From the IMG/VR virus record IMGVR_UViG_3300043409_001427, positions 18,104 to 82,103 of that record: a stretch of DNA of 64,000 bases; one strand, written 5' to 3'. The stretch's first letter is position 1; every line of letters starts with the position of its first letter. The notes under the pieces were generated by a model that did no database searches, was not told the origin of the DNA, and worked only from the letters and a program-made list of their open reading frames with translations. The position numbers and the translations under genes are program-made. The stretch is from a virus. Shown in pieces: positions 19,961 through 59,793 of the stretch.

Positions 19961-20005
19961 AATTTTATTTTATACCTTATTTATTTTATTCATTAACTGA
20001 GCATA

Positions 20006-20443: not shown

Positions 20444-20461
20444 GATTGTATTTATTTGTCC

Positions 20462-25700: not shown

Positions 25701-26299
25701 GCCGCGATAGAAGCCACATGCATTGATTCGAGAAACCCACTTATACTGTAGGGTTCAATAACTTCAAATATAACCTTTGTAGGTTGTGTTACTCCGCTTT
25801 GACCATCCGAAGACATAACAGTTTCTACCTCAACATTGTCAACAAACATGTCAAAGCGACCCGGACTTTTTTGATTAAACTCACTGATAAGAGCGTTACC
25901 TGAAGAATCTAAATAATCAACCTTAGTAGTTGCTGTTGTCACCGTAGGGACTGTTTTCTTCCACCACAATGAGCCAGTTGTTGCAGTACCGCGCTTTTCT
26001 TCTTTCACTTCCATCGTTCGAGGAACTGGTACTGCTTTTGACGGATCAATTCCTTTGGTACCTTTTCCTGATGATCTTAAAATAACATAGTCTAACGCAC
26101 TATCTCTATAAGTTTCGGGCCTATACGCATCGTCTCTTTTTAATGTAGACAAAGTAAAAAGATATGTATAGGATTTATATTTGTGTAATACATTACTACC
26201 AGTTGACCCTCGAATCGCGCCGTTAGCAGTGTCCAGCCCGATTGGTGCAGGTGTTGCTGACTTTTCTGTTTTCTTTTCAACACTAGTACTATCAGCCAT
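22709..26299 (-). CDS. Baseplate hub/tail protein (gp27-like position) with a long Gly/Ala/Ser-rich C-terminal extension
   Basis: NVLHKYKSYTY.FTL, FE.IEPYS..F, Y.YIYTGKN.DV..F, IEIVGDPFY and FSG.Y.V....S.F.GG.F.Q.L; lies upstream of gp5. Confidence 0.65.
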   Translation of the reverse strand: MADSTSVEKKTEKSATPAPIGLDTANGAIRGSTGSNVLHKYKSYTYLFTLSTLKRDDAYRPETYRDSALDYVILRSSGKGTKGIDPSKAVPVPRTMEVKEEKRGTATTGSLWWKKTVPTVTTATTKVDYLDSSGNALISEFNQKSPGRFDMFVDNVEVETVMSSDGQSGVTQPTKVIFEVIEPYSISGFLESMHVASIAAGYASYHDATFLLKMEVVGYPDGDDISDPIYEKNAVRYFPIQLSNVEVSVDEKGTKYNVTAVPLEQKGFGNPSEIKMPVKISGGTVQSILQNLVQSVEKQAKEHDQSISKTPLGADSFDEYKIRFPEWNDTTGWSDGVKIVNKLAGAQVTELLKDSASYKFPDAGTNQKPTANQPKDQKNPTPEQSAKRPEVFKLSPGVSAVQFPEGKKIHECITSIIKDSHYIRDILEKLSSPSEWQTVVKDNMVDYFLIKMEVENKQSTSKEKKRPYQIYTFVVTPFKILYTRIPNYGNNRLDMEKLSKQSMREYNYIYTGKNIDVTNFKLNFNNMFFEAVPARLGNTGGPPSRNSAAPTDKPNIKITTSESDIDRSQETGLPGHPVQTTADLTNDMENSGGQTQQSAYFAMAQAMHSAVVDSTSNMLTGEIEIVGDPFYIVTGGIGNYSPKPSKASPRETQDGEASFNYGEVLITINFMNPIDIQPLEQGGQMFFEPEKIPFSGVYMVTTCKSAFKGGAFKQTLQIVRVPGQSRAGEVSNKGKNKPTDPTARISQAVNRRDTVVQDATPAEPSAPGQRPDELNLWNQINRGLPSPGLPGYLSNFTAATGGLGGTVSAVAGSNLNLAGASRLSAGISAVSGATPNLAGAARLAGQGFGGSIPGGQFQPAFGMPLPARAAVGLQNRVYSPGGYVQQLASTLANSFGISGAPRQLLDQFVGIQARKVSQLGVIGSGIGAGANVQIIPSALPIGNSPIQGLNSNMIGATSSMPDRGAGLVGDVTSRLRSLTQGSNADPHAIAPLFGVDQSQLSGLSPNLESKVLGQLSGIASNIPADTNLATAAAQGINLNGMSYGGISRLPPSAPYAVAQPPRPDIGALNSIVSYGGPTALARSYGANNISEISQTQLSGDTAQEAMSNSPSIVQKYASRLGVNNLTDAAVLGAKLYAERKSLMGPTGILGSLEGNFIGVRNQLGPVNIVGDLGSSVVNKFGSRSAGTSPLDKIMIR

Positions 26300-43366: not shown

Positions 43367-44458
43367 ATGTTGGACGCATTCAAACAATTAGTTGAGTCAG
43401 GCGTAATGACAGAAGAGACAACTCAAGTTGTTGAGGCTGCTATTGCCGCTAAAATTCAAGAGAATCGCGACCAAGTAACCGCAGAACTTCGTGAAGAATT
43501 TGCTCAAAAATACAATCAAGACAAGAGCTTGATCGTAGAAGCAGTCGACAAGATGTTAAGCGAACGATTGGCCGTTGAGATGACAGAATTGTATTCTGAC
43601 AAACAAGCCTTAGCCGAAGCAAAACTAGCATATCAAAAAAAGATTGCTGGAGATGCTAAGAAACTAGAAGGATTTGTTATTAAACAATTAGGAAAAGAAT
43701 TGGTCGAGTTCCAAGGAGACCGTAAGAAAGTTTCTGAGAACTTCGCTAAGTTAGAGCAATTTGTAGTTCATGCTCTATCGAAAGAGATCAAAGAATTTGC
43801 CACTGATAAGAAGGATCTAGCTGAAACGAAAGTTAAGTTAGTTCGTGAAGCTAAGAGCAGATTTAACGATATTAAGCATAACTTTATTAAACAAAGTGCT
43901 AAAGTAGTTGAGACAGCAGTAACTAAAAAGTTAACAACTGAAATCAAGCAATTGAAAGAAGATATTGACTCTGCTCGTAACAATGATTTTGGTCGTAAAA
44001 TTTATGAAGCATTTGCACAAGAGTTTGCCGGTTCCTATCTAAACGAGAAATCTGAAACAAGTAAATTGTTAAAGATCATCGAGAAGAAAGAACATGAACT
44101 AGCAGAAGCAAAAACCGCAGTAACTGAAAAGAATTCTCTAGTAGAATCCGCAAACCGCGAAATTCGAATCACAAAAGATTTGATGGAGCGCAAGCAAGTT
44201 ATGGGCGAATTGTTAGCACCGTTAAGTGCTGATAAGCGAGCGTTAATGAAAGAACTTCTTGAGTCGACCTCGACAAAGAAACTTACAGAATCGTTTGACA
44301 AATACCTACCAGCAGTTATGGAAGGCCAGAGGAAAGTAGTTGCTCCACAAAAAGCAATGTTATCTGAAGGTACAGAAGTAACCGGAAATCGTGAAGTTAA
44401 GCCCGAGGTAGGCTTAGATAACATTTTAGACATCCGCAAATTAGCGGGTCTAAAATAA
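43367..44458 (+). CDS. gp22: Prohead scaffolding protein (start likely 43367, after SD GAGGAG)
   Basis: Coiled-coil, Glu/Lys-rich protein between gp21 and gp23; FGRKIYEAF..EF. Confidence 0.85.
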   Translation: MLDAFKQLVESGVMTEETTQVVEAAIAAKIQENRDQVTAELREEFAQKYNQDKSLIVEAVDKMLSERLAVEMTELYSDKQALAEAKLAYQKKIAGDAKKLEGFVIKQLGKELVEFQGDRKKVSENFAKLEQFVVHALSKEIKEFATDKKDLAETKVKLVREAKSRFNDIKHNFIKQSAKVVETAVTKKLTTEIKQLKEDIDSARNNDFGRKIYEAFAQEFAGSYLNEKSETSKLLKIIEKKEHELAEAKTAVTEKNSLVESANREIRITKDLMERKQVMGELLAPLSADKRALMKELLESTSTKKLTESFDKYLPAVMEGQRKVVAPQKAMLSEGTEVTGNREVKPEVGLDNILDIRKLAGLK

Positions 44459-44485
44459 TTTTAATATTCAAGGAGAAGACATAAA

Positions 44486-45673
44486 ATGTCACAACTATTA
44501 AATGAAAGATGGTCAGAGACCAAAGAAGCTCTGCTTGAAGGCCTATCTGGTAACCGTAAAGCATCTATGAGCGTATGCTTAGAGAATACTCGTCGGTACT
44601 TGGGTGAGTCTGCATCAGCAGGTGCAACAAGCGCCGGTAATGTAGCAACACTTAACCGTGTTATTCTACCAGTTATCCGTCGTGTTATGCCAACAGTTAT
44701 TGCCAACGAAATCATCGGCGTTCAGCCAATGACAGGCCCTGTTGGTCAGATCCACACATTGCGTGTTCGTTATGCTGATTCTAGCAACGAAGTTAGCGCA
44801 GGTGAAGAAGCATTGAGCCCATTCAAAATTGCTCAAGCATATTCTGGTAACGACAACAGCACAACCCCTCGTGCTGCTGCCACAAGTACTTTAGAAGGTA
44901 CACCAGGTAAGCGTATGAGCATTCAAATCTTGAAAGCAGCCGTAGAAGCTAAGTCACGCAAGCTATCAGCTCGTTGGACATTCGAGGCAGCACAAGATGC
45001 ACAAGCTCAACAAGGTATCGATATCGAAGCAGAAATCATGGCCGCTTTAGCACAAGAAATTACTGCTGAAATCGACCAAGAGATCCTAGCAAGCCTACGC
45101 GGGTTGGCAAGTGTTGAAGAAACATATGACCAAGCACTAGTGTCTGGTACAGCCACATTCGTTGGTGACGAGCATGCCGCTCTAGCTATTCAGATCAATC
45201 GTGTTGCTAACTTAATTGCTCAGCGTACACGCCGTGGTTCTGCAAACTGGGCTGTTGTTTCTAACCAAGCATTGACAATCCTACAATCTGCTACTACAAG
45301 CGCATTTGCTCGTACAACAGAAGGTACATTTGAAGCTCCTACAAACACTAAGTTTGTTGGTACATTGAATGGTGCAATGCGTATCTATGTAGATGCATAT
45401 CTACCAGATAGCGGTTCACAGGGAATCGAAGACAACCAAGTTCTAGTTGGATACAAAGGTACCAGCGAGGCTGATGCAGCCGCGTTCTATTGCCCATACA
45501 TTCCTCTAATGAGCTCTGGTGTGGTTCTAGATCCAGCAACATTCGAACCAGTAGTTGGCTTCTTAACACGCTACGGCTATGTTGAGTTGACAAACACAGC
45601 GTCTAGCTTAGGCAACGCCGCTGACTACCTAGGCAAAGTGTCTATCAATTCTGATAACACAAGCTTCAAGTAA
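44486..45673 (+). CDS. gp23: Major capsid protein
   Basis: LPVIRRVMP..IA.EI.GVQPMTGP.GQI, V.AKSRKL.ARWT.E.AQD, EI.AEID.EI, TRRG..N, FYCPYIPL and F.TRYG. Confidence 0.98.
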   Translation: MSQLLNERWSETKEALLEGLSGNRKASMSVCLENTRRYLGESASAGATSAGNVATLNRVILPVIRRVMPTVIANEIIGVQPMTGPVGQIHTLRVRYADSSNEVSAGEEALSPFKIAQAYSGNDNSTTPRAAATSTLEGTPGKRMSIQILKAAVEAKSRKLSARWTFEAAQDAQAQQGIDIEAEIMAALAQEITAEIDQEILASLRGLASVEETYDQALVSGTATFVGDEHAALAIQINRVANLIAQRTRRGSANWAVVSNQALTILQSATTSAFARTTEGTFEAPTNTKFVGTLNGAMRIYVDAYLPDSGSQGIEDNQVLVGYKGTSEADAAAFYCPYIPLMSSGVVLDPATFEPVVGFLTRYGYVELTNTASSLGNAADYLGKVSINSDNTSFK

Positions 45674-45704
45674 TCACAAAGAACTGCTTTATAGCAAAAA
45701 CAGG

Positions 45705-45730
45705 AAACCCGCGTTATGCGGGTTTTTTGT
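45705..45730 (+). terminator. Intrinsic terminator after gp23
   Basis: AAACCCGC-GTTAT-GCGGGTTT followed by a T tract. Confidence 0.85.
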
Positions 45731-45754
45731 TGGACCTAATATCTGCAAACTTGC

Positions 45755-45816
45755 TAAATAATCATGTTCACCCCGTAAGGGAGTTTATGCGGTCCCCACC
45801 GCGTAGGCAATAGAAC
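45755..45816 (+). promoter_or_regulatory. Putative late promoter (TAAATA 45755-60) and structured 5' leader (three-way junction)
   Basis: GTTC/GAAC closing stem, CCC-GTAA-GGG hairpin and an 11-bp G-U-containing stem GTTTATGCGGT/ACCGCGTAGGC. Confidence 0.55.
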
Positions 45817-45842
45817 TGTCTAACAATTTAAGGAGAAACAAA

Positions 45843-46748
45843 ATGGGACGCCCTATTAAAAAACAATTTTTTGGAAATTTAAACCTAGGTGCTGCAACAA
45901 CTACTGATGATGGTATCGGTGGTGAAGGAGTCAGTTCAGTAATTACTATTGGAACTGCCGGCACACATTACTCACAAGGCGCAGTTGCAGTTTTCACTGC
46001 ACCGGGCTTGCCAACAGGTGTTACTGCAACAGCCGATCTTACAATCAGCACACCAGGCGGCGCTGTTACAGCTATCGCATTAACTAACAAAGGTTCTGGT
46101 TACACAGGAACAGCAACAATTACAATTACTACTGCTACTGGAGTTGCCTCATCCGCAACATTCAACAGCGGGTTGCTAGGTGCTAATACATTTACAGTTG
46201 CAAGCGTAACTGGTATTGTTGTTGGTATGACTGTTGCCGGTGCCGCAACTGGTTCTTCCGGAAAAGTACAAAGTATTAACTCTGGTCTAAAAAGAATTAC
46301 AACTACTGTAAACAATGCAAATACCTGGACTGACGCCGGTGACTTAACATTTACTGATTTAGGTACTGGTGCCCTGTTTATCACAACATTAACAACTACA
46401 GAGCAAAACGCTCTTAATGTTAGTGCAAAGTTACTTGCAAAAGATGGCGGTACTGCTGTTCTGGCATCTGACATCGTTAAACAAGAAGCAAGTCGTCGTT
46501 ATCTAGTTAAGAACACAGACGGAACAGGTCAGTGTATACTAGTTGCTAGTGATACACCGGCTTTTGGCCAAATGAATATGACAGCAACTGATTCTGGTAG
46601 CAACACCTACTGGGTTACTAAACTAACTGCTCGTCGTTGTACTTTGACCCAACGCACTGGTAGTACACATGAATTTGCCTCAGGCACAACAGCAGGTTGG
46701 AATATTACTGCCGCAGCCACAGGTGTTGTAAAACTCGGTAATGCTTAA
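45843..46748 (+). CDS. Thr/Gly-rich putative virion structural (decoration-like) protein
   Basis: MGRPIKK.FFG start, GSGYT motif and IVKQ..SRRYLV; has its own promoter, strong SD and terminator directly after gp23. Confidence 0.65.
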   Translation: MGRPIKKQFFGNLNLGAATTTDDGIGGEGVSSVITIGTAGTHYSQGAVAVFTAPGLPTGVTATADLTISTPGGAVTAIALTNKGSGYTGTATITITTATGVASSATFNSGLLGANTFTVASVTGIVVGMTVAGAATGSSGKVQSINSGLKRITTTVNNANTWTDAGDLTFTDLGTGALFITTLTTTEQNALNVSAKLLAKDGGTAVLASDIVKQEASRRYLVKNTDGTGQCILVASDTPAFGQMNMTATDSGSNTYWVTKLTARRCTLTQRTGSTHEFASGTTAGWNITAAATGVVKLGNA

Positions 46749-46766
46749 TTAGTTTTAAGCTCACGG

Positions 46767-46792
46767 AAAAGGACTCTACGGAGTCCTTTTTT
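46767..46792 (+). terminator. Intrinsic terminator (possibly bidirectional)
   Basis: AAAA-GGACTC-TACG-GAGTCC-TTTTTT with a cUACGg tetraloop. Confidence 0.9.
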
Positions 46793-46809
46793 ATTCTGGT
46801 AAATACAGG

Positions 46810-47289
46810 ATGACCATTCCATTAACGATAACTCAATGGGCCGAAGATCCTTCTCATATAGGTTGGGAAAACATAGAATTATTACCAAGTTCTACTTCGC
46901 AACCACTATTACATATTGCTAGAGAACCTAAAAACGATATTAAAATGAAAACCCATTTTGTATATGCCACGGGATTCGATTTTAAATATGTTCCTGAAAT
47001 TATTTCCGGAGTACAGTTTACACTGACCGTAGATAGAGGTGGACGCATATATGATGAAACTATACAATTAATGTATAATGGAAAATTAATTGGAGAGAAT
47101 AAAGCATCTCAATTCGTTGATCCAACACAAGTATACGGGGGTATTACAAATACATGGGCAGTACCCAACATCAGTAGGCAACTGGTTCAAGATACATCTT
47201 TTGGGATAGCACTAAGATTTAAAAGTCATCCTGCATGGCCTCATAAAACTACAGCTATTTTAAGGCTACTGGATCTACAGATATACTAA
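46810..47289 (+). CDS. Hypothetical late protein (beta-rich)
   Basis: 159 aa; TAAATA sits 4 nt upstream of the ATG. Confidence 0.65.
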   Translation: MTIPLTITQWAEDPSHIGWENIELLPSSTSQPLLHIAREPKNDIKMKTHFVYATGFDFKYVPEIISGVQFTLTVDRGGRIYDETIQLMYNGKLIGENKASQFVDPTQVYGGITNTWAVPNISRQLVQDTSFGIALRFKSHPAWPHKTTAILRLLDLQIY

Positions 47290-47319
47290 ACGAATAAATA
47301 CCCTAAAGGAAGCAAAATA

Positions 47320-50300
47320 ATGGCTGGAAGCAGAAACTCAGGAACAAGATCAATAGGACCAACAAGTGGAGTTATATCTTCTCCTAAGCCTTCTTCTCAA
47401 ATTGATCAACAGACTAGTAGCACCACTTTAAACTCTATAGTTATTGATGCTGATGGATTTTTAAGATTAGTTGCCGGCTCCTCAATCTACACTGTTATAC
47501 AAAATAATGATTTAAATGTAGGAAACGTTAATAATCCTACAGGCGCCGACTCCATTGCTCCGATTGATCAAACATTATATAGCACAACTGAAGAAAGACA
47601 GTTAGCCAGCGCATATTTTCCCGGCGGCATGGGCATTGAGAAAGACTTAGCAGTTGGCGGATTCATTTATGGTCGTATTGCTCAAGCCAATACTGCCACA
47701 ACTTCTTCAAACATCAGTGTGCTACAAACTAATGCTGACCTTGCGTACTACCCTGTATTCACCACCTCGGAAGGTTTGATTATACAAGGCGCTCAACTAT
47801 ACGGCGACCCTTTTAATCAAGATATTAGTACAGGTGGATTAACTTATAATCCTTTCTATGGAAAACTTTCAATAGAACGGGGAGAAGTCAAATCTGACGA
47901 AGTGTCAACTAGCCCAACAACTGGCGCATTTACAGTAACTGGCGGTGTTGGTATTTTAGGAGATGTGTACATTGGCGGCACTGCAACTGTTGAAGATGCT
48001 ACTAATTCAACCGCAATTGATACAGGCGCATTAGTTGTAACCGGCGGCGTTGGTATTGGAAAAGATCTCAATGTAGGCGGTAACATTTATCCTGCAGAAG
48101 TTAATACTGGAACTATCGGTGCTCAAGATCTTGAATGGGCCGATGCATACTTAAACAAAGTATATACTAAATTTTTAGGAAGTACTGCTAGTAATTTAAC
48201 TATTGCTCCTGGTGGTGGAATGACTGATGTGTTTGGCGACATTAGAGTTCGTGGACAAAATCCAATCGGTACTGCTCCGGTTATTACCAATGTACTATAT
48301 GTTACCATGGATGGTAACGATACCAATGACGGCCGTGCTCAAGATCCTAGCCGTGCTTGTCGAACTATCGGCGGAGCAATCAACAGCCCATACTATCAAC
48401 CAGGAACACAAATCCAAGTTAGCCCTGGCCGATATTTAGAAAACAATCCTCTTGATATGAGCCCCTATACTTCTGTAAGAGGAAGCGATATTCGTACAAC
48501 ATTTATTGAACCAATCAATAAAACACAAGACTTATTCCACATGAATAGTGGATGTTATCTTAACTACATGAATTTCTTAAACGGTCGAAGCGGTCGGTTG
48601 CCCGGGGCATACCAACAGAAATTTAATAGAGGTGCGTATGCTACATCGTTTCCTCCACAAGTGGGCGATAGCAAAATTGATTTATTTCAATCTCCATATG
48701 TTCAAAACTGTACTAATCAAAGCGGTCCGTGGCTGAATGATGGTACAATGTTTGTACCAAATCAAACAGTGCAAGTACCGGCGGCAGTTGGCATGGGTTC
48801 GTGGGAAGCAAACACCACTACCATAACTGTTAGTGTGTCTACAGGAACAATTAGTATTGGACACAGCATCAATGCAGGAAAACAAAATCCCGGATTCTTT
48901 AACGGTCGTACATTGTTGTTAGCCAACAAGCCATTTATACAAAGTCAAACAGTTGCCTGGGTAGATGCAACATTTAATAGCGGATCGTTTACCTACAATC
49001 AATTAAAGTGTTCACGAGATACCGGCCTAGTAGTTAACGCTATTGCCATGGACTTACTACAGGACAGTACCAGTGATAGCCAGTTTGCAGGAATACAATA
49101 TTGGAATCAAGATACCTATACTGGTGAAATTCCTAGCGAAATAACTGCAACAATTGCCGCAATAACATTCTTAAAAAGTATTTCTATTGTTAGTTCTCCA
49201 ACAAATCAATCTACGGTTGATACATTATATGATAAAATTATAGATATACTAAATGTTGGTACGCTAGGTATAACAGATGATTTATCTTATGGCGGATTGC
49301 CATCAACTGATCCGGATGTAATTGCAGACTATCAATATCTACAAGATAACAAAACCACTTTACAAGAAACAGTTATTGATTGGATCACTAGTAACTATCC
49401 ATCATTAGTTTATAGTCAAGAACTTTGTTATAGAGATGTAGGATACATAGTTGACAGTGTCTGCTTTGACTTACTACACGGTGGTAACATACAAAGTATT
49501 AAGAGTGGTGTTTACTATTATAACTACTCTAACACTTCAGCATTAGAAGCAACAAACGAAGTCCCGGCAACTACTGCTGCCTACAATTTTATGAAGAGTA
49601 TTATCTCTAATATCATTGAAGCTAAAGTAATTGCAAATCCGTATCAAGTATCCGTTACTCAGGTAACAGGATTAGATGCAGGCACCGCAAGACAATCTAC
49701 TACTGTTAAAGGATTGATTGATACCATTACAGGAATCATTCGTAACGGTCCAGAATGGGCGGGACCAAAGACACCTATTAACTTAACCACAAACGAAAGT
49801 GTAGGTATAATCAATGCTTACAATCTTTTAATTGCTAATATTCCTTTTATTCAAGCAGAAGTAATTGCGTTTATTGATCAAACAATGAATTCCTTTGAAT
49901 ATAATAGGCAGCTATGCTATAGAGATGCCGGTATCATACTAGAGAATTTAGTATATGATGCTGTGTTTGGTGGTAATGAAAAGAGTGTTGAGAGCGGTAA
50001 AGCATATTACCGTGGAGTAACTAGTGTTATTGCTGGACAAGAAACACAGACGATTGGCGCGATAGATCATATTGTTGACTTATGTGAAAAAATATTAATA
50101 AATGAGGTATGTGATGTTATTTCACCACCCGCAAACATTCCATCAAACAGTCAGGTAATTAATACTAATTTATCTGGCGGCGAAATTATAATTCCAAGTT
50201 TAGAAAAATTAGCCAACATTACAACTAACATTATTCTTAACGGCCCAGACACGGCGCCTGAATTGTATAATGGTCCTGGCCCTGACTCAGCATTCGTAAG

Positions 50301-53300
50301 CGCAGAAATATTGTTACAGGCTAATCGTAAGTTTATTCAAGAAGCTACTATTGATTATATTAATTACAATCTGTGCTTTCCTCCTAAAACATTACCATAT
50401 AATCAAATAAAATGTAAAAGAGATGCAGGTATTATAGTTGACTGTATTGCGGCTGACTTATTATTTCCAACCCCAAGCAACAGTCAAAGTACTTTTGCTG
50501 GAGTACAATATTTTAACCGAACCGGATACACCGGTGCTATTAAAGAACAATTAGGCCCAACTATTGATGCAGTTACATACTTGAGAGACCTAAGTGTTAA
50601 AGTTGTTCAAAATATTACAACTGCAACTGACACTATATTAGGTGTAACTCGTTATACAGATGCTGTGCAAACTACAGCTTCAAATTATGCCACTGCTTCC
50701 GAAGTTGCAACAATCCGTTCAGAATTTGGAATAATACTAACAATATTAAATGGTAGAACCACGGGCTGGTCCGATGAAATTATTCCAAATGGCGGAACAA
50801 TTAGCCCATTCCCTAGTGTGCAGAACACTGTTGACTTATTACAAAATAATATTGATTATCTATCGGAAGAAGTTGTTGCCTATGTTAATGCAACCAATCC
50901 GGGATTCACTTACTCAACAAGTACCTGTGCTAGAGACATTGGATATATTATTGATAGCGTTAGTTTTGATTTGTTGTATAGCGGCAATCGCCAAGCAATA
51001 CAATCTGGTTTAAGTTACTATCAAAGTATTGGTGCAGAAACAGTTATACCCGGCGAAGTACCACAAACCGTAGATGCATTTACATTTATTGGTACACTAA
51101 CATCAATGTTGATCCAAGGCGAAACTTACTATCCTCGACAAACTAAAGTAAAACCTGTACTAGGGTTAGCCCTAGGTGATAGTATTGCTGCCGAGGCAGT
51201 AACTACCATTATTAGCACTATTACAAATATTATTAGCAACGGTCCTACGGTGGCCGCAACATTAGTTCCTATTTCATTAATACAAGATACTTCTACAAGC
51301 ACAGTTAATGCTTATACTATTCTTGTTGCAAACAAAAACTTTATTGCCGCAGAAACAATAAAATATCTAGACGAAACTTACAATGCTGATAGCTTTACCT
51401 ATGATCAAGAATTATGCTATAGAGATACTGGACTGATTATCGATGCAGTAAGCCAAGACATATTATTAGGTGGTAATCAAAAGAGTAGAGAAGCGGGATT
51501 AAGTTACTGGAACCAAGGTTACAACTATGTATCGGGCCAGTTAACTACTACTACTGCGGCAATTAATTATGTTAGAGATTTAGCCCTACAAGTTATTGCC
51601 AACACTACAGTGACAACAGTTACCGGTACTGTAACAACTCAAGTTATTAATCCGTTTTACCAATACGGCGGCGACTATATGCCGCAAGAAGCCGTTATGA
51701 GAAACTTTAATATCATTACTGATATTATCAATAACGGCGCTGAAGCCGCTCCCCCGATTTATGCAGGCGGCGGATTGTTTATCCTGACAGGACTAAATGG
51801 TTCTGCTGTAAAGATCGCACCAACAGTTACTTCTATAACCGAAGTAGATACTAATGTTTACGAAATAGGACTAGACACTTCTACAATTGGCTACGGCGCA
51901 GACGCAACATTATACTTTGGTGATACTGCAATTTTTCCAGCACAATCATCTCAAGTAGAGGACAAGAGTTTAGAATACACAGGTAGCACAAGCACCTGGA
52001 ACGAACGAAAAATTGACTCAATAGGTGCAATTGGCGGCAGTTTAGTTGATGGTGGAGTTATCAGTGACCGAAGCCCAATTCAATCATTTGTTTATGATGC
52101 GTATACTCAATTAAACCAAGGCGGCATTGGTGTTAAAGTTACAAACAACGGATACGCACAGCTAGTTTCTGTGTTTACTATTTTCTGTGATGTTGGTGTT
52201 CTATGTGACAACGGTGGTATTGCTTCTATTACTAACTCCAATTGTAACTTTGGCAATATATCATTGTTGGCAAAGGGGTATGGTGGCCGTAGCTTTAGTG
52301 GTACAGTGGTCAACCCTCCTTACAGATCATATCCATTTAGCCCAGACGGCGAAGGATTACCATATCTTGATCAATTCTATCCAGACGGGTACTGGCCAAA
52401 CCAAGGCGGCCGAGTAGAAATATTTGTACCTGATACTGCCAATAGGCCACACATTGGTCTAGTAATGGAAGTTGAGGCTCCACAGGGACACAAGAACGAA
52501 CAGGGATTTGACGGGTTCTTAAATATCTATCCAAGTACAAGTACCTTGACTACTGGTACAATTACTTTAACCGGAATTAGTACTAATGATGTGTTTATTG
52601 GTAACAATCTTTATATTAGAGATCAATTTGGTCGTCAATTTGACGACAACGGAGTTTGGTATGCAGGAACCGGCACAGTTGTAACTGATGTTGGCTATAA
52701 CAGCATCAGTCTTAATCAAGCGTTAGGCAGCGGCGGCGGTGACCCAACCAATCCAACTTACTTCACATTATATTTCTGTGGAAATAGTTATTATACTGTG
52801 CAGACAAGTGTGGTAGCCAATCAACCATATGCACCAAACAATAATATTTTAAGTGCAAACACTGATCCGTTTTATCAAGGACCTACCGTTAATCAAATTT
52901 CCGCACATATTTCTTCACTGGAGTATTTAAATACTGTCGTAGACAATGTAATTGCTAACCTTACAGTTTCCCCAACCGCGGGAAATACAGCGACACAGGT
53001 CATAAATCAGTCAGTTATCGGTGGCGCAAGTGCTCAAGCATTTATTGATTTAAGATTTGGTTACATAATTGATATTGTAGGTGCAGCCAACATTACTGCG
53101 GCGCAACAGGTAGTTCCACAGAGTCAAATTACAACAGTAGGCACGATTCCTGCAGGTGCAGGTAGCGCAGTTATTTTGATAGTAGAAAATATAGAATTTA
53201 TAGCAGAAGAAATTGCTGCCTATGTTGATGTTAATCTATTAGGTGGAATTGTAAGTTACGATAAATCTAAATGTGTAAGAGATGTAAAACTAATTTTACA

Positions 53301-53739
53301 ACAACTAATTTATGATTTACAAACCGGCGGAAATTATAACAGCGTGTATAGTGGATTAAGTTACTGGTCTCGTACAGGCTCGTATCACATTGTTGAACTA
53401 GGTGAAGCAGTTAACAGACCAGACTTATTTCCAGACGGATCAGTTGTTAATTTCTATCAACGAAGTTACATAAGCGCATCTGGTTACCTATTTGAATATG
53501 TTGGCGCCGGAACAAACTACGGAGCACTTCCTCAACGAGGTGTTGCGGATCCTGTACAGAGCCAAGAAACTGTTCAGCTTAATGCTGGTAAGGTGTTCTT
53601 TACCAGTACAGATCAAAACGGTGACTTCCGTATTGGTCCGGGATTAGTAATAAGTCAAGCTACGGGTGTTCTAAGTGGTAGAACATTTGTCCAATCATTA
53701 TACGCAAATATGACCCCATTCATATTAGCAATTGAATAA
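47320..53739 (+). CDS. 2139-aa putative virion protein: fibre repeats, split pectin-lyase-like beta-helix and seven phycobiliprotein-like CxRD repeats
   Basis: GAL.V.GGVGI repeats, VLYV..DGND.NDG...A..TI..A, SPYVQNCT and DAYTQ.NQGG.G....N.GYAQLVS.FT. CxRD repeats have Cys at residues 564, 703, 866, 1032, 1203, 1366 and 1985. Confidence 0.8.
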   Translation: MAGSRNSGTRSIGPTSGVISSPKPSSQIDQQTSSTTLNSIVIDADGFLRLVAGSSIYTVIQNNDLNVGNVNNPTGADSIAPIDQTLYSTTEERQLASAYFPGGMGIEKDLAVGGFIYGRIAQANTATTSSNISVLQTNADLAYYPVFTTSEGLIIQGAQLYGDPFNQDISTGGLTYNPFYGKLSIERGEVKSDEVSTSPTTGAFTVTGGVGILGDVYIGGTATVEDATNSTAIDTGALVVTGGVGIGKDLNVGGNIYPAEVNTGTIGAQDLEWADAYLNKVYTKFLGSTASNLTIAPGGGMTDVFGDIRVRGQNPIGTAPVITNVLYVTMDGNDTNDGRAQDPSRACRTIGGAINSPYYQPGTQIQVSPGRYLENNPLDMSPYTSVRGSDIRTTFIEPINKTQDLFHMNSGCYLNYMNFLNGRSGRLPGAYQQKFNRGAYATSFPPQVGDSKIDLFQSPYVQNCTNQSGPWLNDGTMFVPNQTVQVPAAVGMGSWEANTTTITVSVSTGTISIGHSINAGKQNPGFFNGRTLLLANKPFIQSQTVAWVDATFNSGSFTYNQLKCSRDTGLVVNAIAMDLLQDSTSDSQFAGIQYWNQDTYTGEIPSEITATIAAITFLKSISIVSSPTNQSTVDTLYDKIIDILNVGTLGITDDLSYGGLPSTDPDVIADYQYLQDNKTTLQETVIDWITSNYPSLVYSQELCYRDVGYIVDSVCFDLLHGGNIQSIKSGVYYYNYSNTSALEATNEVPATTAAYNFMKSIISNIIEAKVIANPYQVSVTQVTGLDAGTARQSTTVKGLIDTITGIIRNGPEWAGPKTPINLTTNESVGIINAYNLLIANIPFIQAEVIAFIDQTMNSFEYNRQLCYRDAGIILENLVYDAVFGGNEKSVESGKAYYRGVTSVIAGQETQTIGAIDHIVDLCEKILINEVCDVISPPANIPSNSQVINTNLSGGEIIIPSLEKLANITTNIILNGPDTAPELYNGPGPDSAFVSAEILLQANRKFIQEATIDYINYNLCFPPKTLPYNQIKCKRDAGIIVDCIAADLLFPTPSNSQSTFAGVQYFNRTGYTGAIKEQLGPTIDAVTYLRDLSVKVVQNITTATDTILGVTRYTDAVQTTASNYATASEVATIRSEFGIILTILNGRTTGWSDEIIPNGGTISPFPSVQNTVDLLQNNIDYLSEEVVAYVNATNPGFTYSTSTCARDIGYIIDSVSFDLLYSGNRQAIQSGLSYYQSIGAETVIPGEVPQTVDAFTFIGTLTSMLIQGETYYPRQTKVKPVLGLALGDSIAAEAVTTIISTITNIISNGPTVAATLVPISLIQDTSTSTVNAYTILVANKNFIAAETIKYLDETYNADSFTYDQELCYRDTGLIIDAVSQDILLGGNQKSREAGLSYWNQGYNYVSGQLTTTTAAINYVRDLALQVIANTTVTTVTGTVTTQVINPFYQYGGDYMPQEAVMRNFNIITDIINNGAEAAPPIYAGGGLFILTGLNGSAVKIAPTVTSITEVDTNVYEIGLDTSTIGYGADATLYFGDTAIFPAQSSQVEDKSLEYTGSTSTWNERKIDSIGAIGGSLVDGGVISDRSPIQSFVYDAYTQLNQGGIGVKVTNNGYAQLVSVFTIFCDVGVLCDNGGIASITNSNCNFGNISLLAKGYGGRSFSGTVVNPPYRSYPFSPDGEGLPYLDQFYPDGYWPNQGGRVEIFVPDTANRPHIGLVMEVEAPQGHKNEQGFDGFLNIYPSTSTLTTGTITLTGISTNDVFIGNNLYIRDQFGRQFDDNGVWYAGTGTVVTDVGYNSISLNQALGSGGGDPTNPTYFTLYFCGNSYYTVQTSVVANQPYAPNNNILSANTDPFYQGPTVNQISAHISSLEYLNTVVDNVIANLTVSPTAGNTATQVINQSVIGGASAQAFIDLRFGYIIDIVGAANITAAQQVVPQSQITTVGTIPAGAGSAVILIVENIEFIAEEIAAYVDVNLLGGIVSYDKSKCVRDVKLILQQLIYDLQTGGNYNSVYSGLSYWSRTGSYHIVELGEAVNRPDLFPDGSVVNFYQRSYISASGYLFEYVGAGTNYGALPQRGVADPVQSQETVQLNAGKVFFTSTDQNGDFRIGPGLVISQATGVLSGRTFVQSLYANMTPFILAIE

Positions 53740-53750
53740 CAGGAAAGAAT

Positions 53751-54134
53751 ATGGCACAGTTACCATTAAACAAGTTTTTAACTAAGACAGCAGTGTTGAG
53801 TACCAGCACTACTACCAATGTCTACACAAGTCCAATTGGAATAACTTCAATTGTATTGATGTCGCAGGTAGCAAACCTTACAACCGAAACACAATATGTA
53901 AGTTTTCAACATTTTAGATATAAGACAGTATTGCCCGACGCCCAGGGATTTGGCGGACAAACAGGAAATACTCCAAGTACCTTAGTTAAAGAATACGCAA
54001 TTCCTGCAAATGATGCCGGAACCCCACTAACCGGAAAATTAATTATTGAAGAATTAGATGGTGTCCGTGCGTATGCGACGAATTCAGGAACAATGCAGTT
54101 AATACTGAGTATTCTACAAACAGCTAATTCATAA
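53751..54134 (+). CDS. Small putative virion structural protein
   Basis: LPLNKF.T, YT.P.G..SIVL..QVAN and IP.ND.....GKL..E..D; a beta-sandwich-type partner that follows the large structural gene. Confidence 0.65.
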   Translation: MAQLPLNKFLTKTAVLSTSTTTNVYTSPIGITSIVLMSQVANLTTETQYVSFQHFRYKTVLPDAQGFGGQTGNTPSTLVKEYAIPANDAGTPLTGKLIIEELDGVRAYATNSGTMQLILSILQTANS

Positions 54135-54155
54135 ACACAAACAGGATAATATATA

Positions 54156-55178
54156 ATGCCAGGATTATTAAGCGGATCAATGTTAAGGACAGGTGGCAGC
54201 GGGCAGTTTATTAAACTGCAAGATGCTATGCCACAGCTACCTGCAAGCCCTAGCACCAGCACAGGTTATTCTATCATCACTAGCGACAAGTTAGTAACTA
54301 CCTATGCCAGTAGTTTAGGAAACATTGAGTTTAGTTCTGCTACTGTTTACAGCAACAACGGGCAAAACATACAGATAATTGCAACCGGTACGACAACCTC
54401 AATTGTTGTACGAGGCAGTGTAGCCGCAATAAGCACCAACACAGGAGCGTTAGTTGTTCAGGGCGGGGTTGGCATGAGCGGAGACCTTTATGTTGGGGGC
54501 ACTTTCACTGCAACAACTTCTTCTGTAGTAACTTTGAATGTTGCTAATACCGCAACCGTTTATGGTGATTTGTTCGTTGAAGGTAGATTTACTGCTTCAA
54601 CTTCTACAATACTAACTTTAAAAGTTATAGGAACCGAAACTTCTATCTCAACAAATACCGGCGCCCTGCAAGTCGTTGGAGGGGTGGGCATTGCTAAAAA
54701 TTTATTCGTTGAAAGTACAGCTACATTTAATACCGATGCCCTTGTTAATAACAATTTAACCGTTAAGGAAAATTTTACCGTTGACGGAAATGGTAATGTT
54801 TATCTAGTACCGGATGCGGCAGATGTAGTACTTCAACCTACACTAGGTGGAAAGGTAACTATTTGGCCGTCTGCTACTGGTAACATAGATAATATGGTTA
54901 TTGGCGACAATGATGCAAGAGACGGATATTTTGATACCCTCTATGCAGAGAACCTAACAGTTACAAATACCGCATGGGTAGGTGGTAGTGTTTACAGTCA
55001 AGAAGGCATTCTTGCTGAAGATAACTTATTATACACACCTCGATCAACATTATCAATCGGCTCACCGCCCGCTGATCCAAGATTAGGAGATTTTTGGATA
55101 GATCCTGGCCAAGGCGCAACCTTTCAATATATATTAGATGATGTAAATAAGGTATGGATACAATTTACAGGACTATAA
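54156..55178 (+). CDS. Fibre-like structural protein
   Basis: Two STNTGAL.V.GGVG...L.V repeats; C-terminal PP..P..GDFWID...WIQ. Confidence 0.7.
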   Translation: MPGLLSGSMLRTGGSGQFIKLQDAMPQLPASPSTSTGYSIITSDKLVTTYASSLGNIEFSSATVYSNNGQNIQIIATGTTTSIVVRGSVAAISTNTGALVVQGGVGMSGDLYVGGTFTATTSSVVTLNVANTATVYGDLFVEGRFTASTSTILTLKVIGTETSISTNTGALQVVGGVGIAKNLFVESTATFNTDALVNNNLTVKENFTVDGNGNVYLVPDAADVVLQPTLGGKVTIWPSATGNIDNMVIGDNDARDGYFDTLYAENLTVTNTAWVGGSVYSQEGILAEDNLLYTPRSTLSIGSPPADPRLGDFWIDPGQGATFQYILDDVNKVWIQFTGL

Positions 55179-55187
55179 GAGTATAAT

Positions 55188-56381
55188 ATGGCTTCAATTT
55201 TTCCAACATACACCACCGGTACTAACACAGGAACCAATTATACCATAGGTACCACAACATACCAGTGGACTGGATATGCTTGGATTAAGGTTTCGGAAAC
55301 AGCGCAACTAGAAACTCTCACATTAAAGAATTTAACAGCTACAAATACCATAGTAGTAACATCAACTACTAATGCAATTTCCACGGTAACTGGTGCTTTT
55401 CAAGTAGCAGGGGGAGCTGGCATTGGGCGAGATTTGTGGATAGGTGGTAAGGTTGTTATTGCTAACACATCAACAATAGACAACGCAGACATAGTTACTA
55501 CTGCTACCCTTGCCCAATATATACTCCCGTCAATTTTTGTTGCCGGCACCGGCACAACGATCACTACTTCTACTGCCAACTACCGAGAAACGATAACAAT
55601 CTGGAGCACTAGTACATTACAGACCGTAACAGATAGCGGAAATTCAACCACTAATCAACTACTATTTTTAAACGCCACTAGTGCAACCAACACAGTTTCT
55701 GGAGCATTGATTGTTACTGGAGGTGTTGCAATAGGTGGCGATCTTTATTTAGGTGGTACAATTTATAGTGCAGGTGTACCGGTAATTACCACTACCACAA
55801 TTGTGGATTATTTTGCAGCCGGAGACGATATACAGATCATATCAACAGCATCGTTTACCGGACAAGTGTTGCTGATCACTAATACTAGTACTTTACAAAC
55901 TGTAACAACTCGCGGCTCTACAACTACCAATGCCGTACACTTTACAAACACCACAGAATCTACATCAAGTAGCACAGGAGCGGTGATAATCGGCGGTGGA
56001 TTGGGCGTGGCTAAACGAATTAATTCTGAAAGCCTGCAAATTGCAGACACCGTGATGGATTCTGGACTAATTTTGGTAAATACGACAGCAACCTATGTAG
56101 TAGATTATTACCCTATTGGGCAGTATAGATCGGCAAAATATCTAATACAGATAGAAGATGGGAGTGGGATTTCGGCCAATTTTGAAACTATTGAGATTTT
56201 ATTATTAGTAGATAACGCACAAACGGTATACGCAACAGAATACGCTGTTCTTTCGTCCAATGGAGAATTGGGAGAATTTGCGGCAGATGTACAAGGAGAT
56301 GATGTGGTTAGACTTTATTTTACACCTTTCCAGGCGTCAAGTAAAATCTTAAAAATCTTCAGAACAGGAATGGTAGCATAA
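55188..56381 (+). CDS. Fibre-like structural protein
   Basis: N-terminal YQWTG.AW, GA..V.GG.GI repeats, TLQTVT..G..TTN repeats and a C-terminal YRSAKYLIQI domain. Confidence 0.72.
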   Translation: MASIFPTYTTGTNTGTNYTIGTTTYQWTGYAWIKVSETAQLETLTLKNLTATNTIVVTSTTNAISTVTGAFQVAGGAGIGRDLWIGGKVVIANTSTIDNADIVTTATLAQYILPSIFVAGTGTTITTSTANYRETITIWSTSTLQTVTDSGNSTTNQLLFLNATSATNTVSGALIVTGGVAIGGDLYLGGTIYSAGVPVITTTTIVDYFAAGDDIQIISTASFTGQVLLITNTSTLQTVTTRGSTTTNAVHFTNTTESTSSSTGAVIIGGGLGVAKRINSESLQIADTVMDSGLILVNTTATYVVDYYPIGQYRSAKYLIQIEDGSGISANFETIEILLLVDNAQTVYATEYAVLSSNGELGEFAADVQGDDVVRLYFTPFQASSKILKIFRTGMVA

Positions 56382-56400
56382 CAAAGGACATTACACTAAA

Positions 56401-59400
56401 ATGGCACTAACATCGATCACTAAAGACTTCGTAGTCAGATCCGGTCTTACTTCCGAGGGAACTAATTGGGTAACCTCAAGCACAGGCATGACAGCCACCC
56501 TACAAGTTAACGGTGGCGCTGCGATTGCAAAGAATTTGGTTGTTGGAACAACAGCAACTATTTGGGGCCCGGCAACCCTACAAAATAATTTAACCGTCAA
56601 TGGTTCAACTGTTTTAGGAAATCTAACAGCAACGTTAACTACAGTTACTTCATTACAAGTAACTGGTCCAAGTTTATTCCAAGGACAAACACTATTTACA
56701 GGCGCTGTAAACACATTTAGTGGTTCACTATTTGTTACAGGCACAAACATTTTCACAGTTGGTACAGGAACATCTAACTTTGGCGGTACTGTTGGTATTG
56801 CTGGTGTAACAAGTATCACAAATAACACAACCGCAAACAGCGGCGGCGCAACAGGCGCATTAGTTGTTACCGGTGGTACCTATATTGGTGATAACCTAAT
56901 TGTTAAGAGTACAGCGTGGAACACCGCAACAAATACAGATAACGCAATTTATACTACTGGTGGTATCTACGCAGACAAAGGATTAACAGTTAACGGGACA
57001 ACCTTGTTCAAGGATACTGTTACTTTTGCGGGTACTGCAACTTATGTATATTCTACCAATACAGTTTATACAGATAATATTCTTGAACTACACACGCCAC
57101 CGACAGGAGTTGACACTCCGTGGTTTATAGATGATGGAAAAGACATTGGTCTTCGATTCCACTATTATACAAATTCAACTGATACAAATGCGGCCCTAGT
57201 ACTTGCAAATGATACTAAGGTACTCGAATGGTATAGTGCTGGTGCTGAATCAAATACAGGAACATTCCATAACGCAACTTACGGCACATTCAAAACTGGT
57301 TCTATTTTATTAGATAATTCAACCGGAGCAAACTCAACAACTACCGGAGCTCTACAGGTAAAAGGCGGCGCTGGGGTAGGCGGCAGTATGTATGTTGGTG
57401 GAGTTGTAACTGCTACTACATTTTACGGTGCATTAACTGGTATTGCGACTACAGCAACTAACCTAGCAGGCGGTGCAAGCGGCAGTCTTCCATATCAAAC
57501 GGGTGTTGGTGCAACCGCAATGCTATCGATTGGCGCCAACGGCCAAGTCCTTATGATCACTGGCGGAAATCCGTCATGGACAAATATTTCAGGATTAACC
57601 GCAGGATTCGCAACTACAGCAACTAACATTCTCGGCGGATTAAAAGATCAAGTTCCATACCAAACTGCTCCTGGACAAACGGCATTTAATGTAGGCATGA
57701 CCTTTAATGGTACTATTTTTACCGCTACAAACATCACGGTTAGTGGAACAAGTAATAGTACAGGATACAATAATAATACTGGTGCGTTAATTGTAAGGGG
57801 CGGAGCCGCAATTAACAACGACCTATGGGTAGGCGGAGACATTAACCTACAAGGTAGTTTATATTTAAAAGGTGTTGGCCTTGATGAAATTACAGGTAGC
57901 ACAGGTACATTTGACTTCTTGATTGTTGAAGGAACAGGTACAAGTCTAATAGTTACCGATGGTTCTACGTTTGCTGGTATTACTACAGTTACAAACGCAA
58001 CTCCTTCATTGGGAGCAGGTGGGGCAGGTGCATTCCAAGTTAAGGGCGGCGTGGGTGTTACTAAAGATATCTATGTAGGTACGACTGCTACCGTTGCTGG
58101 TATATTAAATGCAACTAACACAACTCCGTCATTAGGTGTTGCTGCCGCAGGCGCAATACAAGTAAGTGGTGGCGTTGGAATTGCTAAAGATTTATATGTA
58201 GCCACTACTTCTACTTTAGCCGGTTCATTGAGTGTAGGTACTTCATTAACTGTTGCCGGTTACACAAGTTTAACTGGCGGTGCAACAATAAGCGCCGCTA
58301 CAGTTACTAACACATTACTAGTAAATGACATAACACCTTCGTTAGGTTTGGCAACTGCCGGTTCGATACAAACTGCTGGCGGTGTTGGCATTGCTAAAGA
58401 CATCTATGTTGGTACTACTGCCACAATTATTGGTTCGGCAAGCGTTGGCGACGCATTTACTGTTACTGGATTTACTTCATTAAACGGTGGCGCACTTGCC
58501 ACAGCAATGACTATAACAAATAGTACTTCAGTTAGCTCAACAGGAACCGGTGCTTTAATTGTTCCACTAGGTGGAGTCGGAATTGGCGGCGGCCTAGTAG
58601 TTGGCGGTGTAACAAGTTCAACAAACATGACTCCTTCGTTGGGAGTCGCTGGCGCAGGATCAATACAAACTGCTGGCGGTGTTGGAATTGCCAAAGACAT
58701 TTATGTTGGTACAACTGCCACAGTAGCCGGTGTGCTATACGAAACAAACGCAACCCCTGCGTTAGGTGTTGCTGCCGCAGGCGCAATACAAGTAAGTGGT
58801 GGCGTTGGAATTGCCAAAGATATCTATATTGGTTCAACTGCTACAATTGCCGGCATAACATATCACAACAATACAACTCCGACACTAGGCTCTGCATCAC
58901 AGGGTGCAGTACAAACAACTGGCGGTGTAGGTATTGCTAAAGATTTATATGTAGGTACAACTGCTACCGTTGTTGGTATACTTACTGTAAACAACAATAC
59001 TTCAGTTAGCTCAACTACAACCGGTGCATTAATTTTATCGGGTCCAACTTCTGGATTAGCTGTAGGGGGTGGCGGGTTCTTTGGCGGCACGGTAACTGCT
59101 ACTAACCTTGTTATTAGTGGAACAGCAACATTACCAACTAATGTTATTTTAAGTAACTTAACAGTAACAAACCTAACAGTTACTAGCACAACCCCAACAC
59201 TTGGATCTCCGTCCTTTGGCGCAATAGTTGTATCAGGTGGTGTTGGAATTGCCAAAGACATCTATGTTGGTACCACTGCTACATTTAATAGTACAATTGC
59301 TGTAACGGGCATTGCAAGTTTTAATAATGTCACAGACAGTAACGCTACAAATAACGGAAGTGTTATTTTAGCAGGCGGCGTTGGAATTGCTAAAAATCTA

Positions 59401-59793
59401 GTTGTTGGCTCAGCAGTCACTATTGGTAGCGTAACTACGCAAACCGTAGTTACAGCAGTTTACAGTAACAACTTTTTAGATGCTAGCTATACCAGCGGTT
59501 ATATATCTTCCCCGACAGAAATAACTTTAGATACTTACAGTTCAACTACTTATAGAACTGCAAAATATCTAATACAGATCGTAGATGCCGCGCTGGTGCA
59601 TGTTGAAGAAATTATGCTATTCCACGATAGTACTAATGTTTACATGACAGAATACGGTGTAATGTCTAACACTGGAGAATTGGGAGATTTTGACGCAACA
59701 CTTGCGGCCAATACAATCACTCTTAAATTTACTCCAAATTACACTCCTACTTCGATGACAGTTAAAGTGGTTAGAACAACAATAACTCTGTAA
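56401..59793 (+). CDS. Long fibre protein with many GA.QV.GGVGIAKD.YVG repeats
   Basis: More than ten GGVGI-type repeats; the C-terminal YRTAKYLIQI..TEYG....GELG.F.A domain is shared with the upstream ORF. Confidence 0.8.
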   Translation: MALTSITKDFVVRSGLTSEGTNWVTSSTGMTATLQVNGGAAIAKNLVVGTTATIWGPATLQNNLTVNGSTVLGNLTATLTTVTSLQVTGPSLFQGQTLFTGAVNTFSGSLFVTGTNIFTVGTGTSNFGGTVGIAGVTSITNNTTANSGGATGALVVTGGTYIGDNLIVKSTAWNTATNTDNAIYTTGGIYADKGLTVNGTTLFKDTVTFAGTATYVYSTNTVYTDNILELHTPPTGVDTPWFIDDGKDIGLRFHYYTNSTDTNAALVLANDTKVLEWYSAGAESNTGTFHNATYGTFKTGSILLDNSTGANSTTTGALQVKGGAGVGGSMYVGGVVTATTFYGALTGIATTATNLAGGASGSLPYQTGVGATAMLSIGANGQVLMITGGNPSWTNISGLTAGFATTATNILGGLKDQVPYQTAPGQTAFNVGMTFNGTIFTATNITVSGTSNSTGYNNNTGALIVRGGAAINNDLWVGGDINLQGSLYLKGVGLDEITGSTGTFDFLIVEGTGTSLIVTDGSTFAGITTVTNATPSLGAGGAGAFQVKGGVGVTKDIYVGTTATVAGILNATNTTPSLGVAAAGAIQVSGGVGIAKDLYVATTSTLAGSLSVGTSLTVAGYTSLTGGATISAATVTNTLLVNDITPSLGLATAGSIQTAGGVGIAKDIYVGTTATIIGSASVGDAFTVTGFTSLNGGALATAMTITNSTSVSSTGTGALIVPLGGVGIGGGLVVGGVTSSTNMTPSLGVAGAGSIQTAGGVGIAKDIYVGTTATVAGVLYETNATPALGVAAAGAIQVSGGVGIAKDIYIGSTATIAGITYHNNTTPTLGSASQGAVQTTGGVGIAKDLYVGTTATVVGILTVNNNTSVSSTTTGALILSGPTSGLAVGGGGFFGGTVTATNLVISGTATLPTNVILSNLTVTNLTVTSTTPTLGSPSFGAIVVSGGVGIAKDIYVGTTATFNSTIAVTGIASFNNVTDSNATNNGSVILAGGVGIAKNLVVGSAVTIGSVTTQTVVTAVYSNNFLDASYTSGYISSPTEITLDTYSSTTYRTAKYLIQIVDAALVHVEEIMLFHDSTNVYMTEYGVMSNTGELGDFDATLAANTITLKFTPNYTPTSMTVKVVRTTITL

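Follow-up and report, generated by a model that had tools for sequence, protein, structure and literature searches.

Tandem phycobiliprotein-type globin domains with a conserved bilin-site motif in a fibre-type protein of an uncultured freshwater jumbo phage

Introduction

Phycobiliprotein-type globins have so far been known as the antenna subunits of the phycobiliproteins (CpcA/B, CpeA/B and ApcA/B; PF00502) and, since 2023, as the single-domain bilin biosynthesis-associated globins (BBAGs) of bacteria. The bilin site of phycobiliproteins is the motif CXRD, in which the Cys is bound covalently to the chromophore, with hydrogen bonds to it from the Arg and the Asp (PMC10151467). Of the BBAGs (Rockwell, Martin and Lagarias 2023, PMC10151467), the globins BBAG-1 and BBAG-3, which have the motif, attach bilins without a lyase, whereas BBAG-2, which is without it, behaves differently. 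Here, we analyze a 2139-amino-acid (aa) protein encoded in a 64,000-nucleotide stretch of viral DNA (positions 18,104 to 82,103 of the IMG/VR record IMGVR_UViG_3300043409_001427; the window, hereafter) in which domains related to these globins are repeated.

The literature treats the purpose of three sets of phage bilin genes, PebS and PcyA in part among them, as unsettled. That of HemO with PcyX or PcyA in phages of non-phototrophs has been called 'still enigmatic', and BBAG-type globins come up there solely as a host-side possibility (PMC11480375, section 14); the role of phage cpeT has been called 'unresolved' (PMC3037559). We found no published description of phycobiliprotein-like domains in phage structural proteins in the literature.

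The phage domains share with phycobiliproteins a length of ~165 aa, a predicted globin-type fold, and the C-x-R-D chromophore-site motif. Phycobiliproteins, however, are free subunits of 160–185 aa, whereas the phage domains stand head to tail in 7–24 copies within structural proteins of 2000–7000 aa, with no sign of the alpha-beta pairing, discs, or rods of the antenna; unlike an antenna, moreover, they occur in jumbo-clade records in which no photosynthesis genes were found. Like the phage domains, BBAGs are phycobiliprotein paralogues found away from the antenna. BBAGs are encoded in genomes that also have haem oxygenase and a ferredoxin-dependent bilin reductase (FDBR) of the PcyA/PcyX branch, as are the phage domains in the three near-complete genomes of the jumbo clade, and the lyase-free attachment seen in BBAG-1 and BBAG-3 is what the jumbo-phage domains would need. 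In contrast to the phage domains, which are arranged in tandem in virion-type proteins, BBAGs are single-domain, cytoplasmic, and encoded beside the FDBR; in the jumbo genomes, the arrays lie far from the haem oxygenase-FDBR cassette, in the same genome but not in the same cluster.

Seven repeats related to phycobiliproteins

The motif C-x-R-D occurs exactly seven times in the open reading frame (ORF), at residues 564, 703, 866, 1032, 1203, 1366, and 1985, against 0.027 occurrences expected by chance from the protein's own composition, and the first six motifs are spaced 139, 163, 166, 171, and 163 aa apart (Table 1). The seven copies align over ~165 aa with 24–39% identity, the residues invariant among them being N, Y, C, R, D, a second D, G, and Y. 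When the whole 82-kb record was scanned with a profile in six-frame translation, repeats were found in this ORF only. Just before repeat 7 lies a half repeat, helical and confidently modelled by AlphaFold2 (AF2), that had escaped the original prediction, a model's reading of the sequence alone. That reading had given the ORF length, the seven motifs, their Cys codons, and their spacings exactly; the three example repeats it quoted are all found in the translation, and the phycocyanin-alpha motif it cited agrees with the PDB alignments. Its word 'polyprotein' is wrong: nothing suggests cleavage, and the domains are fused inside a fibre-type protein.

The proposal that the repeats are related to phycobiliproteins was borne out at the level of sequence. 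Pfam PF00502 (Phycobilisome protein) matches residues 1329–1431, in repeat 6, with 28.7 bits against a gathering cut-off of 22.2. A profile built from the seven repeats and run against all PDB sequences placed phycocyanin alpha chains at the top, aligned on Cys84, with marginal E-values. With a non-redundant profile of 132 repeats (the seven of the window and 125 from 53 IMG/VR loci, these loci having been gathered with a two-repeat protein query), phycobiliproteins made up 47 of the 50 PDB matches, with a best E-value of 1.9e-4. The aligned stretch begins in helix B, takes in Cys84, and extends as far as Gly104 or, in the beta chains, about residue 160.

The predicted structure leads to the same family. 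AF2, given the 132-repeat alignment, modelled repeat 6 with a predicted local distance difference test score (pLDDT) of 89.1 and a predicted template modelling (TM) score (pTM) of 0.86. Foldseek ranked phycoerythrin and phycocyanin chains first for this model (TM 0.60–0.68 over ~150–165 alignment columns), with globin-coupled sensors lower in the fold lists. In VIA-align, the model superimposes on phycobiliprotein beta chains with a Z-score of 16.3 and a root-mean-square deviation of 2.6 Å over 141 of 166 residues; the best 50 entries are all phycobiliproteins, and the Z-score exceeds the tool's warning level for generic helical folds. The globin fold that had been surmised from the repeat period is thus the predicted one, that of a phycobiliprotein globin rather than a generic helical bundle, at an identity to phycobiliproteins of 10–18%. 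Profile matches and the predicted fold together show the repeats, as judged from sequence and model, to be homologous to phycobiliproteins and real members of the bilin-binding-globin superfamily.

Near-invariance of the bilin-site residues

In all seven repeats, aligned on phycocyanin alpha Cys84, the Cys84-x-Arg86-Asp87 site falls at the homologous position of helix E. The two-repeat search matched at least 953 giant proteins, more than half of those listed having a precomputed PF00502 match. We analyzed 121 homologues, the query included, of 2139–3735 aa and with 7–24 CxRD motifs each. The bilin-site residues, that is, the attachment Cys with the Arg and the Asp, are almost invariant in them: of 1563 full repeat copies, 98% have the Cys, 99% the Arg, and 100% the Asp, so that the invariance noticed within the one protein extends to its homologues. 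An Asp 11 residues on and a Tyr 27 residues on are likewise kept in 100% of the copies, and the rest of the domain drifts to 20–40% identity among repeat copies.

Of the 16 repeats inspected in T4-like cyanophages, none has lost the Cys or the Asp, and 6 read C-x-D-D instead of C-x-R-D. This second repeat subtype, in which the Cys and the second Asp are kept and the Arg is replaced by Asp, was seen in the cyanomyovirus array proteins of an IMG/VR locus (L042) and of phage S-PM2 (L063).

The carrier protein

A fibre-type virion role of the array protein, which the original prediction had put down as a putative virion protein, is well supported by sequence similarity and context. PHROG families annotated as tail fiber, short tail fiber, or virion structural protein match it with E-values of 1e-79 to 1e-15. 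Three of them (PHROG 17885, 3442, and 9851) align by their own C-termini to aa 2040–2139, a stretch with many invariant columns in 20 orthologues; for three others (PHROG 5342, 29288, and 529), the best stretches lie at aa 1544–1660, in the beta-rich region between repeats 6 and 7. The major capsid gene precedes the array gene by 1.6 kb on the same strand; neighbors in this late structural block also include portal, protease, and scaffold-like genes and other giant ORFs. Structural relatives in BFVD (TM 0.75–0.87) are chunks of uncultured Caudovirales proteins and cyanophage proteins, the latter labelled tail protein, tail fiber-like, or structural protein.

Outside the repeats, the models are less informative. 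AF2 of the C-terminal 657 aa gave an overall pLDDT of 53, with confidence only in the helical part, which includes repeat 7 (pLDDT 83–95), and in a short beta part; over the beta-rich middle region, pLDDT is below 50 for most of the length. For the N-terminal region, the nearest language-model clusters are viral DUF1565 (beta-helix) proteins (score 0.93), which we take as a lead only. Megablast of the array gene against 50,697 phage records gave no match.

Table 1. Features of the array gene and the neighboring capsid gene, in window coordinates
Feature	Position	Strand	Basis or remarks
Major capsid protein gene	44486..45673	+	PHROG 138
Giant structural (tail-fibre-type) protein, 2139 aa	47320..53739	+	ORF list, translation, PHROG matches, late-block position
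N-terminal region, aa 1–514	47320..48861	+	Without Pfam match; possibly start of a beta-helix
Repeat 1, shortened	48862..49287	+	Cys codon 49009; profile match
Repeat 2	49288..49776	+	Cys codon 49426; profile E 4e-58
Repeat 3	49774..50271	+	Cys codon 49915; profile E 5e-52
Repeat 4	50275..50781	+	Cys codon 50413; profile E 5e-48
Repeat 5	50785..51270	+	Cys codon 50926; profile E 7e-55
Repeat 6	51268..51762	+	Cys codon 51415; passes PF00502; copy modelled
Beta-rich middle region between repeats 6 and 7	51766..52884	+	Tail-fibre PHROG matches; poor AF2 model
Half repeat	52885..53106	+	Profile E 2e-8; only C-terminal helices, profile positions 89–161
Repeat 7	53125..53568	+	Cys codon 53272; profile E 1.5e-31
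Conserved C-terminal tail-fibre-type end, aa 2040–2139	53437..53736	+	PHROG 17885, 3442, 9851

Bilin synthesis genes in the jumbo clade

All three clade records that are at least 92% complete (G001, G049, and G055) carry haem oxygenase and an FDBR, adjacent or nearby, together with arrays. In G001, a complete genome of 364 kb that was selected by its repeats, the haem oxygenase gene adjoins an FDBR that is a PcyX (PDB 5owg, E-value 5e-68). G055 (328 kb, 92% complete) was selected by its capsid protein only (87% identical). Its haem oxygenase gene stands at 163.5 kb and its FDBR gene at 164.1 kb; as in the window, the capsid gene is followed within a few kb by the array gene, here an ORF of 3849 aa with 19 repeats. 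Close PcyX relatives are carried by 376 viral contigs, and the arrays of four other large records (115–356 kb), all selected by PcyX, are spread over two or three giant ORFs per record. The idea of looking for bilin genes in the rest of the genome led to a divided result: the cassette is present in the three near-complete relatives, and nothing of the kind was found in the 82-kb record itself, which is 23% complete.

Two side observations belong here. The HemO-PcyX pair of G001 (L064, 5489–13420) stands between Hsp70, Hsp20, and ClpS genes and genes for CsgF and CsgG-SH3, components of a curli-type secretion channel whose phage-encoded form is unusual and may hint at a Gram-negative host. A further relative (G060; 196,581 bp, 55% complete, capsid protein 80% identical) has no array, FDBR, or haem oxygenase in its sequenced part and could be a natural case of 'neither'.

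Arrays and cpeT in cyanophages

A tblastn search with two repeats against the 50,697 deposited phage genomes matched 48 records, which are cyanophages and one unannotated 'Marine virus'. The giant fibre and baseplate proteins of T4-like cyanophages share the repeat family and the tail-fibre PHROG families with the jumbo-phage protein; they differ from it in lineage (capsid identity below 60%), in carrier architecture, and in that part of their repeats read C-x-D-D. In P-HM1, the repeats are in gp7 (baseplate wedge), between gp6 and gp8; in S-PM2, they are in the 3779-aa 'short tail fiber' (YP_195253), beside gp12 and a tail-collar gene; and in Syn9-like phages, they are in proteins of 6000–7300 aa. 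In the RefSeq record of S-PM2 (NC_006820, 165928–177267), 16 tRNA features fall inside this coding sequence, and its own locus tag is of tRNA style, which looks like a mistake of coordinates or annotation.

Several of these arrays have bilin-related genes as neighbors. In L042 and its relatives, one strand carries, in order, the gp5 hub, a cyanophage OMP-like gene, a CpeT-like gene, PebS, a second CpeT-like gene, a 4053-aa array protein, and a tail-collar gene, and in S-PM2, S-CAM3, and Syn1, cpeT lies 0.5–1.5 kb upstream of the array gene. Of the 16 genomes in Sullivan et al. 2010, 13 have arrays, and none was found in P-SSM2, S-SM2, and S-SSM7; cpeT is present in the same 13 and not in the same three (PMC3037559, Table 3, together with our own search, which adds Syn1). 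We regard this co-occurrence as suggestive only. Syn1 (NC_015288) has a clear CpeT gene at 19950–20462 (119.6 bits), just upstream of its 4026-aa array protein, unlike its entry in Table 3 of Sullivan et al. 2010, which lists it without cpeT.

The phage, its habitat, and other genes of the window

The phage is an uncultured freshwater jumbo myovirus with a genome of ~350 kb, a size that follows from the 82,103-bp source record and its completeness of 23% by CheckV. The window covers late and structural genes of a phage whose core is of T4 type (late sigma factor, gp46/47-like nuclease, portal, prohead protease, and capsid); giant ORFs of 1130 to 4040 aa surround them. Capsid identity reaches 70% at best with isolated jumbo phages (Sinorhizobium Phosso, Vibrio 2.275.O, GAP32, CBB, and PA5oct-like) and is 79–89% with uncultured IMG/VR jumbo records that carry PcyX and arrays. 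No psbA was found in the jumbo clade or in the window's own, 23%-complete record; for pmoC, the search was uninformative, with no match in any genome, the control included.

Near-identical copies of the array gene occur in ~19 studies, mostly of lakes and other fresh water, and the gene is present in six lake metatranscriptome runs. Contigs from three RNA libraries span the whole gene, which is compatible with transcription, although DNA carry-over is possible. Over positions 44400–56400 of the window, the RNA contigs of the lake metatranscriptomes X8, X9, and X13 break near gene borders, with depths of ~2800–12000 at the capsid gene, 76–340 at the next ORF, and 4–42 at the giant array gene; a DNA run gave a single 12.7-kb contig of flat depth 31.6. 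Such a pattern suggests that late transcription is real and that the capsid gene is very strongly expressed, although contig depths are unfit for ranking genes. A contig joint that skips 48715–52153 was set aside as an assembly artefact, as it has only 28 letters on one side and its length is not a multiple of three.

The last ORF of the window (60323–64000, + strand; more than 1226 aa and open at the window end) has an N-terminal Mtd_N match of 28.1 bits against a cut-off of 26.3, a domain known from the diversity-generating-retroelement target of Bordetella phage BPP-1. Four other giant ORFs, at 4395–16517 (−), 16523–19960 (−), 22709–26299 (−), and 56401–59793 (+), encode 4040, 1145, 1196, and 1130 aa; they have almost no family matches (a weak CBM_5_12 in the 4040-aa protein) and no phycobiliprotein-like repeat.

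Discussion

We favor a reading in which the array protein is a late, fibre-type virion protein whose phycobiliprotein-type domains carry bilins, and taken as a whole, we hold this reading to be about evenly balanced between true and false. Bilin binding by the domains, considered separately, is a reasonable inference, and we slightly favor it over its absence. Six and a half globin domains stand in tandem in mid-protein, with one more near the C-terminal fibre end, and in the model that we envisage, each domain would carry a covalently bound bilin. In the jumbo clade, the phage haem oxygenase and PcyX-type reductase would produce this bilin from host haem at a late stage of infection. The domain would then attach it to the Cys unaided, in the manner of BBAG globins, or a lyase would do so, for which orphan CpeT is the candidate in T4-like cyanophages. 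The outcome would be a pigmented rod segment on the fibre. Our preferred guess at the role of the pigment is light sensing that affects adsorption; alternatively, it may stabilize the fold or quench light or oxidative damage.

Several observations weigh against this reading. To our knowledge, no cyanophage preparation has been described as coloured. Six of the seven repeats, run singly, fall below the PF00502 cut-off, so that only one passes alone. No FDBR, haem oxygenase, CpeT, or CpeS was found in the window's own record, only 23% complete, and no CpeT- or CpeS-type lyase was found in the jumbo clade, for which reason any attachment there would need to be autocatalytic. Haem oxygenase and a PcyX-like FDBR are present in the Pelagibacter phage Mosig, with no array by either profile, and P-SSM2 and S-SSM7, in which we found no array, are listed with PebS and Ho1 (PMC3037559, Table 3). 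Thus, although phage bilin genes (HemO/Ho1, PcyX, PebS, PcyA, and CpeT) are found in array-bearing phage lineages, and at times within one gene cluster with the arrays, they encode enzymes that some phages have without arrays, and phage bilin synthesis must have at least one other use. Mosig also rules out a rule that we had considered, namely that PcyX with haem oxygenase always comes with arrays. Finally, the region near gp5 that holds cpeT is a known hot spot of variation (PMC3037559), and on a portal tree, the three array-less phages fit on one side of a single branch, where one gain or loss suffices; because one such change explains it, the match between cpeT and arrays is not independent evidence.

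The alternative that survives best, which we consider possible but clearly on the doubtful side, is a pigment-free module: a globin of phycobiliprotein or BBAG type, captured in the distant past and reused as a compact helical 'bead' that lengthens fibre and baseplate proteins, in which Cys, Arg, Asp, Asp, and Tyr would be kept as a buried polar network for folding or domain packing. Such a module would fit the near-confinement of the domain to giant multi-domain structural proteins: a short-protein search for a stand-alone form gave 11 matches, mostly fragments on contigs shorter than 1.4 kb, none of them convincing. It would also fit the variety of carriers (P-HM1 gp7, the S-PM2 'short tail fiber', and the Syn9-like giants), which is typical of shuffled structural modules, as well as the spread in copy number from 7 to 24 per protein, the change of Arg to Asp in one cyanophage subtype, and the existence of bilin-making phages without arrays. 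What speaks for bilin instead is that a lone Cys and the exact bilin-contact Arg and Asp are near-invariant in more than 1500 copies, which would be unusual for a spacer. Phycobiliprotein-related globins that do not use this site are not known to have the motif; BBAG-2 is an example of such a globin without it (PMC10151467). All three near-complete genomes of the clade carry bilin genes that are otherwise unexplained (PMC11480375).

Quite improbable, in our view, is that the conserved site binds another ligand, be it another tetrapyrrole, a metal, or a host surface molecule, and that the array is an adhesin or sensor. The globin fold does bind varied cofactors, as the globin-coupled sensors lower in the fold lists recall; the additional invariant Asp and Tyr lie outside the classical motif, in the same helix region; and fibre proteins often carry binding domains, the relatives of this one being labelled ChiC_BD, LamG, or Con A-like. 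Against this stand the best sequence and fold matches, which are phycobiliproteins and not haem globins, the lack of an invariant His for haem, and the identity of the conserved residues, which are the exact bilin-site triad. That the protein is not in the particle at all and acts in the infected cell as a bilin sink or antenna-protein mimic, as the usual view of phage bilin genes as acting on host metabolism might suggest (PMC11480375, PMC3037559), is very improbable indeed given its tail-fibre PHROG matches with their conserved fibre-type C-terminus, the location of its gene amid the capsid gene and further giant structural genes of one strand, the position of cyanophage arrays in gp7 between gp6 and gp8 or next to gp12 and tail-collar genes, and a design of 2139 aa with beta-rich fibre segments that would be odd for a soluble factor.

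Within the reading that we favor, that of bilin-carrying domains on a fibre-type protein, the boldest version is that the arrays are a virus-borne photoreceptor, with bilin-loaded globins on fibre or baseplate making adsorption light-dependent; this is speculative, and we consider it decidedly unlikely. P-HM1 and P-HM2 are reported not to adsorb in the dark, whereas P-SSM2 and P-SSP7 do (Liu et al., PMC6628666), and adsorption of S-PM2 likewise requires light; arrays are present in P-HM1, P-HM2, and S-PM2, and there are none in P-SSM2 and P-SSP7. The match fits in a very small sample of related phages and is an anecdote. If true, the photoreceptor reading would explain the light-dependent adsorption of S-PM2 and of P-HM1/P-HM2, as well as the orphan CpeT and the HemO-PcyX cassettes in phages of non-photosynthetic hosts, presumably including this jumbo clade.

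Conclusions

From this comparison, we draw the following points on what the arrays may mean for phages and for the bilin-binding globins:

(i) Phycobiliprotein-type globins, as identified here by profile and predicted fold, occur as tandem arrays inside viral structural proteins, a setting that is new for them.

(ii) The same domains are carried by the cultured phages S-PM2, P-HM2, and Syn9, which opens the way to simple tests.

(iii) If the domains are pigment-free, a light-harvesting or bilin-globin fold would have been captured and multiplied as a virion building block.

(iv) If the arrays bind bilin, they would offer a testable target for the HemO and PcyX of phages of non-phototrophs (PMC11480375), and also for the lone cpeT of cyanophages (PMC3037559) and, in part, for PebS and PcyA.

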